A DNA stretch of 64,000 bases from Octopus vulgaris (lineage: Eukaryota), in NCBI GenBank assembly GCA_951406725.2, contig OX597817.1, positions 73,842,001 through 73,906,000 on the forward strand. Direction: 5' to 3'. Numbering within the stretch: position 1 is the stretch's first letter; every line of letters begins with the position of its first letter. Positions 10,783 to 63,064 of the stretch are shown piece by piece. Position numbers and translations under genes: made by a program. Under the pieces are notes generated by a model that was not told where the DNA came from, did not search any database, and worked only from the letters and a program-made list of their open reading frames with translations.

Positions 10783-10959
10783 ATATCTATATCTACACAC
10801 ACATATGAATACATACATGTATATATATGCATTTGTACGCATATCTATATCTACACACACCATACACATATTTATTTACACACACACACGCACACACACA
10901 CACGCACACACACACACATACATATATATATACATATATATATATACGTATATATATAC

Positions 10960-10994
<35 letters not shown>

Positions 10995-11046
10995 CATATA
11001 CATACATATATATTTGTACGTATATGTATATATATATATATATAAT
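10373..11046. repeat. (CA)n/(TA)n/(TG)n microsatellite block
   Basis: Directly visible. Confidence 0.95.
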
Positions 11047-11198
11047 ATAAATATAAGAGAGTGGTCACCATATGGCTCACTCTAGCACCAGTTAATCCAA
11101 AAGGTTTCAACCACAAAAATACATGTTTCCCATGAAAGTCAGTACGATTGTTAGCTCACACGGACAGGGCAAATAAAAAATAACAAAAATACAGATTA

Positions 11199-11279
11199 TT
11201 TTGGGACAATTGTTCGCTATTAATGAATTAAATGTAATTTTACTTACAAAAAAATCCACTTGTAGCTCGTCAGCCAAAA
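11199..11279 (-). ncRNA. Type I hammerhead ribozyme motif, GAAA reduced to GAA
   Basis: ttttgg CTGACGA gcta[43 nt]tagc GAA caattG TC ccaaaa: stem I 6 bp, stem II 4 bp, palindromic stem III, GUC site. Confidence 0.8.
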
Positions 11280-11493
11280 CTATCTGGATGAAATCCACTC
11301 AATCACACGCCAGATTTTACCATAACGATAAATACGCGTGTGGTTCAATTGATTACATCCGACGTTATAATTCAAATGCCCCAACTAGTTGGGGCATTTG
11401 AATTATAACGTCGGATGTAATCAATTGAACCACACGCGTATTTATCGTTATGGTAAAATCTGGCGTGTGATTGAGTGGATTTCATCCAGATAG

Positions 11494-11575
11494 TTTTGGC
11501 AGACGAGCTACAAGTGGATTTTTTTGTAAGTAAAATTACATTTAATTCATTAATAGCGAAACAATTGTCCCAAAA
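11494..11575 (+). ncRNA. Type I hammerhead ribozyme motif, CUGA changed to CAGA
   Basis: ttttgg CAGACGA gcta[43 nt]tagc GAAA caattG TC ccaaaa; predicted cleavage after C11569. Confidence 0.8.
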
Positions 11576-11922
11576 TAATCTGTATTTTTGTTATTTTTTA
11601 TTTGCCCTGTCCGTGTGAGCTAACAATCGTACTGACTTTCATGGGAAACATGTATTTTTGTGGTTGAAACCTTTTGGATTAACTGGTGCTAGAGTGAGCC
11701 ATATGGTGACCACTCTCTTATATTTATTTTGTAAAAATATTATAATATATTATAAAATATTATAATAATCCAGGTTTCTCGGAGCACTAGGCCACTTGGT
11801 GTTGAATAGATATACTATTAAATTAGTATCTAATTCTCTCACCCTTATTAATTAATTATTTATATATATATATATATATATACGTATTTATGTACATACA
11901 CTCATATATACGTATATACATG

Positions 11923-12249: not shown

Positions 12250-12402
12250 ATTGTTTTGTCTATATACCTACTGCTAATTTGTATGTATACACAACATACA
12301 CATATACTGGAAATATATATATATATATATATATATATATTCCAGTATATGTGTATGTTGTGTATACATACAAATTAGCAGTAGGTATATAGACAAAACA
12401 AT
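12250..12402. repeat. Perfect inverted duplication (~63-bp arms) around a (TA)n centre
   Basis: attgttttgtctatatacctactgc...tactggaa (TA)n ttccagta...gcagtaggtatatagacaaaacaat. Confidence 0.92.
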
Positions 12403-58138: not shown

Positions 58139-58222
58139 TGTCAGAAGTGGGATTCGAACCCACGCCGGGAAGACCCGACTGCGACCTGAACGCAGCGCCT
58201 TAGACCGCTCGGCCATCCTGAC
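58139..58222 (-). tRNA. trnL(CAG): tRNA-Leu(CAG)
   Basis: gtcaggatggccgagcggtctaaggcgctgcgttCAGgtcgcagtc...gggttcgaatcccacttctgaca, 84 nt, long variable arm, T-run terminator just downstream. Confidence 0.96.
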
Positions 58223-60074: not shown

Positions 60075-60280
60075 ACAATGAAAACCGAAGCAGAAAAAGC
60101 TATAAATATCTAGAGAGTACTTTTAATCAAACATTTACATACCTTATAAATTGCAACATGTAGTGCATTCTTTGACACTTGTAAGTGGCTTGGTTAGAAG
60201 TACGATCCACTAAATCTACTTCACAGCAAAAATCTATTACAGAGACAAGTAGTGATCATGTAAAAAATAAAAGTAGTATG

Positions 60281-60364
60281 TGTCAGAAGTGGGATTCGAA
60301 CCCACGCCGGGAAGACCCGACTGCGACCTGAACGCAGCGCCTTAGACCGCTCGGCCATCCAGAT
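60281..60364 (-). tRNA. trnL(CAG): tRNA-Leu(CAG) with two acceptor-stem mismatches (possible pseudogene)
   Basis: Identical to 58139-58222 except the 5' end reads ATCTGG instead of GTCAGG. Confidence 0.8.
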
Positions 60365-62980: not shown

Positions 62981-63064
62981 TGTCAGAAGTGGGATTCGAA
63001 CCCACGCCGGGAAGACCCGACTGCGACCTGAACGCAGCGCCTTAGACCGCTCGGCCATCCTGAC
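62981..63064 (-). tRNA. trnL(CAG): tRNA-Leu(CAG)
   Basis: Identical to 58139-58222; T-run terminator downstream. Confidence 0.96.

Follow-up and report, generated by a model that had tools for sequence, protein, structure and literature searches.

Tandem repeats that encode type I hammerhead ribozymes constitute the non-LTR retrozymes (PMC7229834), which have been argued to be non-autonomous derivatives of Penelope-like elements (PLEs) (bioRxiv 10.64898/2026.07.22.740005). In animals, non-LTR retrozymes are non-coding tandem repeats of low GC content; each monomer contains a single type I hammerhead, and dispersed copies range from monomers to long multimers (Cervera and de la Pena 2020, PMC7229834; Li et al., bioRxiv 10.64898/2026.07.22.740005), and the octopus family described here shares these features. 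It differs in its monomer of 535 bp, compared to 170-400 nt for the reported animal retrozyme RNAs (a descriptive rather than a strict range; PMC7229834), in its very long stem II, and in the dominance of head-to-head insertions: the word "inverted" is absent from the main text of PMC7229834 and occurs in the bioRxiv study only in a reference title.

Insertions of endonuclease-bearing PLEs consist of partial tandems with a head-to-head inverted, 5′-truncated copy, have palindromic junctions and a tail at one end only, and lie in AT microsatellites (Arkhipova et al. 2013, PMC3846280; Craig et al. 2021, PMC8557442). The octopus family has the same architecture, but it lacks an ORF, its tail is ~128 nt long instead of the 30-40 bp of canonical PLE insertions, and its inverted loci follow a rule of one short and one long end (76/79). 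Close hammerhead pairs on opposite strands have been noted before (PMC4209133). For Poseidon PAc of Anolis, in vitro experiments have revealed that reverse transcription starts at two sites that bound the tail, that both strands of an AT-rich target are cut and extended, and that ribozyme mutants insert normally (Frangieh et al. 2024, PMC11167929). These features resemble the octopus family; however, PAc is autonomous, whereas the two sites of the octopus family are deduced from genomic ends only. Integration is a step that the PLE studies cited here call undefined, and hundreds of near-identical octopus insertions offer unusually clean statistics on it.

The window, i.e. the whole stretch of 64 kb that was analysed (G000:C4:73842001-73906000 in the assembly labels), contains a palindrome with a hammerhead in each arm, and each hammerhead has a different core mutation. 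The sequence-only reading had attributed this to selection against self-cleavage, or to the persistence of only cleavage-dead copies. Inactivation of both ribozymes by selection would be a striking finding, but the claim fails in a family-wide test. The structure is real and its origin is ordinary, i.e. a very young family of the known retrozyme/Penelope kind. We are fairly confident that the palindrome is a single young, 5′-truncated head-to-head retrozyme insertion, and that its two lesions are most likely unselected changes or assembly errors.

The palindrome in the window

Alignment of the two arms (11047-11386 and 11387-11727) showed that they are mutual reverse complements of 340 and 341 bp with a spacer of zero. 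From the centre (11386/11387) outward to 11047/11727 they differ at exactly two sites, i.e. a T>A exchange at 11501 in the right arm, which changes CUGA to CAGA (U4), and the loss of one A from the left arm (11213-11214), which changes GAAA to GAA. The original description of two nearly identical arms without spacer, with both differences in the hammerhead core, was thus reproduced. The extent needs a correction: the palindrome does end at 11727, but the element does not. The right arm matches the monomer of the family to q473 (11859) and the left arm to q341, so that the element is 132 bp longer than the palindrome. The features are summarized in Table 1.

Table 1. Features of the inverted retrozyme insertion (positions in the window)
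Feature	Position	Strand	Basis
Left arm, monomer q1-q341, stops at the fixed short end of the family, adjoins (AT)n	11047..11386	-	Arm and monomer alignment
Right arm, monomer q1-q473, stops at the fixed long end of the family, adjoins (AT)n	11387..11859	+	Monomer alignment
Tail of ~130 bp, one arm only, starts with an AT-rich self-complementary island	11728..11859	+	Likewise in 76/79 inverted loci
Right type I hammerhead, U4>A at 11501, predicted cleavage after 11569	11494..11575	+	Motif in sequence
Left type I hammerhead, one A missing from GAAA (11213-11214)	11199..11279	-	Motif in sequence
Zero-spacer head-to-head junction of two 5′-truncated arms, TA dinucleotide at the centre	11383..11390	.	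Other zero-spacer junctions: L141, L187
Locus-private variant, common to both arms (partner 11069)	11705	+	29-mer search
AT-rich microsatellite target, left and right flank	10920..11046, 11860-11890	.	(AT)n at outer ends family-wide

A third variant, G at 11705 and C at 11069, is common to both arms and absent from the family; a 29-mer around it has two matches in the genome, and both are the arms in the window. The insertion is very young, with 2-3 changes in 473 bp. No unique target-site duplication is readable in the AT-rich microsatellite flanks (10920-11046, 11860-11890), and no exon or gene context was found in the ORF list of the 64-kb window.

Elsewhere in the window, a small inverted repeat with arms of ~60 bp around an (AT)n core lies 400 bp to the right of the insertion (12251-12402). 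Three copies of tRNA-Leu(CAG) are present on the minus strand (58139-58222, 60280-60364, and 62981-63064), spaced by ~2.1-2.7 kb, together with a mariner-type transposase fragment (PF01359, 61142-61570, minus strand).

Copy number and class of the repeat family

The repeat is a 535-bp monomer that forms head-to-tail arrays of up to ~17 units. Monomer positions q1-q535 were numbered on a natural copy (L020:1501-2035), and q1 corresponds to window position 11387. With the right arm, 1,038 first-look candidates were retrieved from the 2.8-Gb assembly, the best of 40 scored being 99% identical. Searches of the whole genome for exact matches yielded 1,167 copies of a non-core 26-mer and 2,051 copies of the 3′ half of the ribozyme, and thus at least 2,051 ribozyme copies. 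The number of young loci is estimated to be ~900. No long ORF was found in the six frames of a natural dimer. Tandem monomers, one hammerhead in each of them and the absence of an ORF characterize non-LTR retrozymes, and the family is likely such a non-autonomous retrozyme that is mobilised by Penelope-like elements.

Two further observations concern repeat units. A 17-monomer inverted insertion (L102, G000:C1:158284800-158294799) has private variants that recur every four monomers, and this higher-order repeat could reflect a multimeric circular template. Reads of run X24 that map to L020:1760-2294 contain tandem units of 33-67 bp related to the stretch before q1 and leave the ribozyme without coverage; perhaps these short units are a derived satellite in another population or species.

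The hammerhead motif and its core

The motif comprises stem I (TTTTGG/CCAAAA), CUGACGA, a long stem II, GAAA, the palindromic stem III CAATTG, and UC, exactly as had been described from the sequence. U4A and the loss of a core A would be expected to cripple cleavage. The core of type I hammerheads has been defined as C3 U4 G5 A6 N7 G8 A9 / G12 A13 A14 A15 / U16 H17 (PMC3088659). Copies of the family match this definition, in accordance with the proposed assignment to the Penelope/retrozyme kind, and each of the two window copies deviates at one position. Elements that are related at least in the motif contain compensatory pairs in stem I, i.e. TTTTGG/CCAAAA, TTTCGG/CCGAAA, and TTTTAG/CTAAAA (identified by eye), and the stem III versions CAATTG, CGATCG, and CAGCTG (by eye), so that the stems are kept by compensatory changes. 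A Rfam scan returned no hammerhead among 93 matches at E≤1, and only microsatellite-driven miRNA matches; the miss is likely caused by the long stem II. For an intact copy, the predicted minimum free energy fold (-24.7 kcal/mol) is more stable than the constrained ribozyme fold (-20.1 kcal/mol).

Of 911 anchored copies in the whole genome, 845 have an intact CUGANGA. Among the 66 variants, 50 are changed at U4, namely 48 to C and two to A (2/911); the latter are the right arm in the window and a copy on C6. At GAAA and UC, 2,038 of 2,051 copies are intact. One-base deletions in the GAAA/UC region were found in five copies, four of which have the A deletion of the window type (4 of ~2,056).

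The change U4C, which is reported to reduce but not to abolish activity (PMC3088659), is often common to all copies of an insertion. Its 48 copies have several N7 backgrounds and frequently occupy both arms (e.g. L080, L082, L106, L125, L186, and L187), from which it appears that weakened ribozymes still transpose. In an array of at least 10 monomers (L157, G000:C3:179748300-179754700), intact ribozymes roughly alternate with ribozymes that carry CG>AA at N7/G8, and this alternation suggests that the copied unit was a dimer in which one ribozyme was dead.

Architecture of the insertions

A core-blind sample, which is not a full census, was drawn on C1 and C2 with pattern lists that are independent of core substitutions. 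Its 80 loci comprise 46 head-to-head inverted loci, 33 single-armed loci, and one complex locus. Another 55 loci were added (36 and 17 from two lists after removal of duplicates), which have a bias towards intact cores. Excluded from the counts were L115 (identical to L065), L170/L171 (identical to L169), and L003/L006 (cut by the locus edge), as well as all loci chosen because they carry a lesion, i.e. the window, L143-L147, L186, and L187.

In 76 of 79 inverted loci, one arm stops near q344 (short end) and the other near q472 (long end); none of the 79 has two ends of the same type, and the remaining three have one interrupted arm. The window conforms to this family norm, and the inverted, pLTR-like structure that had been proposed for it stands. 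An inverted, 5′-truncated copy together with a one-ended tail is the architecture of Penelope-like insertions, and it is thus present in these 76 loci and in the window. The outer ends adjoin (AT)n in nearly all of the ends printed (every fourth locus), i.e. the family uses AT-rich microsatellite targets.

The inner junctions are variable: 41 of 76 have an overlap, 14 are blunt, and 21 contain extra bases. The short-ended arm reaches further in 41 of the 76 loci and the long-ended arm in 31, while the two arms are equal within 3 nt in four. Zero-spacer centres recur at L141 and L187, and no preferred truncation point exists among the family junctions at the position of the window's junction. 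At 10 loci the short-ended arm is the longer one and yet has no copy of the tail, and at L124 and L150 the two arms share no sequence. For 39 core-blind inverted loci, arms within a locus differ at 0.34% of the sites, compared to 2.85% between loci.

Possible origin of the mirror arms

Both arms come from one template. The variant at 11705/11069 is private to the window and common to both arms, and the divergence within loci is much lower than that between loci; the two lesions therefore arose after the arms had separated. From the strict rule of one short and one long end, the common template, and the 10 loci with a longer, tail-less short-ended arm, we infer two primings on one RNA. In this model, a Penelope-like RT/GIY-YIG protein would nick an (AT)n tract, and one retrozyme RNA would be reverse-transcribed from two fixed start sites, which lie ~128 nt apart and each serve one side of the target. 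Both cDNAs would stop early and then be joined at their inner ends, mostly by microhomology. In the window both cDNAs would have ended at the same base, generating a perfect palindrome, to which U4A and the A deletion would have been added later. It is conceivable, and we propose it tentatively, that PLE integration is two-ended in general, i.e. that a single protein dimer uses two fixed sites on the same RNA to prime both sides of the cut target. A literature search found no report of twin priming of both strands in inverted Penelope insertions. Two-ended priming would explain the short end, the long end, and the single template of the arms in every inverted insertion. The ~900 young loci would be a natural read-out that connects the pair of RT start sites known from in vitro work with the inverted pLTR and the tail, a structure that has long lacked an explanation, and the mirror arms would feed ADAR with perfect dsRNA.

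Long palindromes are unstable. The arms could also stem from fold-back, i.e. self-priming, of a single cDNA, if the uneven junctions at other loci were the result of later central deletions and the window locus had remained untrimmed. The private variant in both arms fits this possibility, three zero-spacer junctions are centred on self-complementary dinucleotides, and self-priming has been proposed for palindromic junctions (PMC3846280). However, either arm can be the longer one, with 41 loci in one direction and 31 in the other, and the tail-less longer arms and the non-overlapping arms of L124 and L150 mean that neither arm alone could have templated the other one without a later deletion. 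Fold-back is therefore rather unlikely, and two primings on one RNA remain our preferred route.

Predicted hairpin RNA and possible editing

As the two ribozymes face outward, transcription from either flank would produce the antisense arm first, and the sense ribozyme is predicted to be zipped into a 337-bp duplex. The predicted read-through fold has 337 paired bases and -598 kcal/mol, compared to about -20 for the ribozyme. A ribozyme would thus be buried irrespective of mutations, and killing it would be expected to gain the host little.

The family would be a ready source of long dsRNA for RNA editing. The suggestion that the window locus is an ADAR substrate found a hint at the level of the family, but the hint cannot be assigned to this locus. 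Two low-depth contigs of run X19 (RNA by guess, from another individual) contain a cluster of seven A>G changes on the strand of the ribozyme; six of these changes have zero depth in the X1 contigs, and the pattern extends into a loose end. Some transcript of the family thus appears to have undergone A-to-I hyper-editing, which is regarded as a lead.

Distribution of core mutations in the family

To estimate whether the core is a preferred site of arm differences, terminal monomers of 66 inverted loci were compared. The core differs at 4 of 515 positions and the non-core at 83 of 15,547 (odds ratio 1.46, p=0.36). The values for the core-blind set alone are 2/305 and 50/9,453 (p=0.68), and those for tight palindromes, which have little test power, are 1/63 and 18/2,196. 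A wider pass that included inner monomers yielded 5 substitutions in 474 core positions and 53 in 17,529 non-core positions, and a single array with inherited U4C/U4 mixtures accounts for three of these five core substitutions. Minor alleles in the 80-locus sample are rarer at the 12 core positions (23/2,098, 1.1%) than elsewhere (1,621/84,182, 1.9%). Core enrichment, the absence of which the sequence-only reading itself had listed among the results that would refute it, was thus not found in the family.

A full ribozyme is present at each end of 39 other inverted loci, which were inspected for comparison. At 33 of them both ribozymes are intact, three have one lesion, three have the same inherited U4C at both ends, and none has two independent lesions. 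The near-perfect palindromes L141, L137, and L164 have retained both cores. L137 (arms of 336 bp, spacer of ~7) and L141 (spacer of zero) are near-twins of the window, with two differences each, all outside of the core; two is also the commonest number of differences for a full-length arm pair (10/32).

The probability that both of two differences hit the core had been put at roughly (13/340)². This is about right for a single locus (0.0008-0.0012), but it has to be multiplied by ~250 comparable loci. If at most 2.9% of the copies have a lesion and the number of loci is as estimated (150-400 were tried), 0.12-0.33 double hits are expected, and the chance of at least one in the family is 11-28%. 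Other hammerhead families in the genome add further trials. The palindrome itself is far beyond chance. The placement of both differences in the core is not, and the expectation of ~0.2 double hits in the retrozyme family removes the need for selection, although the locus is not commonplace and still somewhat lucky.

It is very unlikely that both ribozymes were disabled by selection, or that only cleavage-dead copies persist, at a locus transcribed on both strands. The low per-locus probability of ~0.001 for two core hits speaks for this view, as does L146, another tight palindrome, with two core lesions in one arm; in Xenopus, retrozymes are depleted from introns (bioRxiv 10.64898/2026.07.22.740005). 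But in L146 the partner arm is intact and non-core deletions accompany the lesions of the damaged arm, most of the other inverted pairs are intact at both ends, and core enrichment was not found. In addition, the insertion is so young that there was little time for two successive sweeps, and the hairpin would be predicted to sequester the ribozyme anyway. In a family without an excess of core damage, the lesions are most likely due to chance or sequencing error. The latter deserves serious consideration, albeit with some doubt: one or both differences may be assembly errors, so that at least one ribozyme would really be intact, a case that is compatible with our preferred explanation. Long reads are error-prone across perfect palindromes, and the deletion lies in an A run, for which an error had been suspected from the start. 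This caution was justified. L143, L146, and L147 have a deletion of the same class and, in addition, many one-base deletions scattered outside of the core; the fourth other deletion copy, L145, has two more. L147 lacks the CUGA half, and selection on cleavage could therefore not apply to it. Furthermore, all five deletion copies are on the minus strand, and non-core arm differences are commoner in tight than in loose palindromes (18/2,196 versus 65/13,351, p=0.057). In contrast, the window arms have no other indels, one-base deletions in runs of 3-4 nt are rare elsewhere (0/288 at this run in the sample), and T>A is a substitution. Two raw WGS runs with the same species label have 1 and 28 reads on the monomer, and their contigs collapse the repeat.

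That the whole palindrome is a fold-back artefact of the assembly, or an inverted duplication that followed the insertion, would be compatible with the zero spacer and the near-identity of the arms. Yet the symmetry stops exactly at the short end of the family while the right arm continues to the long end, in line with the pattern of the other inverted loci, and the flanks are not duplicated, which makes this possibility extremely improbable. A retrozyme insertion with two unselected or erroneous core differences thus remains the preferred reading.

Candidate mobilising elements

An RT and GIY-YIG ORF attached to the repeat, as in autonomous PLEs, was not found: no PLE-like ORF lies beside the sampled retrozyme loci. 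No homology to the monomer beyond the ribozyme was detected in 112 PLE-related stretches (L188-L299). The genome contains at least two young PLE-like clades. The first is an RT+GIY-YIG family of 781 aa with a 46-nt tail, which was rejected as the parent in view of this tail and of the lack of similarity to the monomer. The second clade (e.g. L284, L280, and L251) has ORFs of 980-981 aa with RT-like motifs (identified by eye) and a C-terminal piece that matches GIY-YIG, while the 981-aa ORF as a whole has no Pfam match; in BLASTP its similarity to the 781-aa family is weak (E=0.05).

The second clade has hammerheads of the same design as the retrozyme, i.e. with a long stem II, a six-base palindromic stem III and a covarying stem I, and it also shares the inverted ends, a long tail (~115 nt) and the (AT)n target. 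In contrast, it ends 35 and 150 nt past the cleavage site, compared to 161 and 289 nt in the retrozyme, and it has no significant similarity to the monomer outside of the ribozyme, where local alignments were no better than shuffles (57-293 of 300 were as good). It is a better candidate for the mobiliser than the 781-aa family, and is regarded as a candidate only.

Some properties of these elements were noted in passing. The tails of ~115 nt in the second clade are longer than the 30-40 bp described for PLEs, and an asparagine-rich stretch lies between its RT-like and GIY-YIG regions (L284:3873-6818, L280-L299). The 781-aa family (L220:1581-6330, L222, and L223) is a young autonomous PLE-like family with many intact ORFs, an upstream ORF of 479 aa without Pfam match, and a U3-A8 variant hammerhead-like motif in the 3′-UTR. 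The same type of near-perfect head-to-head palindrome is formed by a second hammerhead family (L196:90-570); both of its cores are intact, and the palindrome adjoins an inverted end of the 781-aa family.
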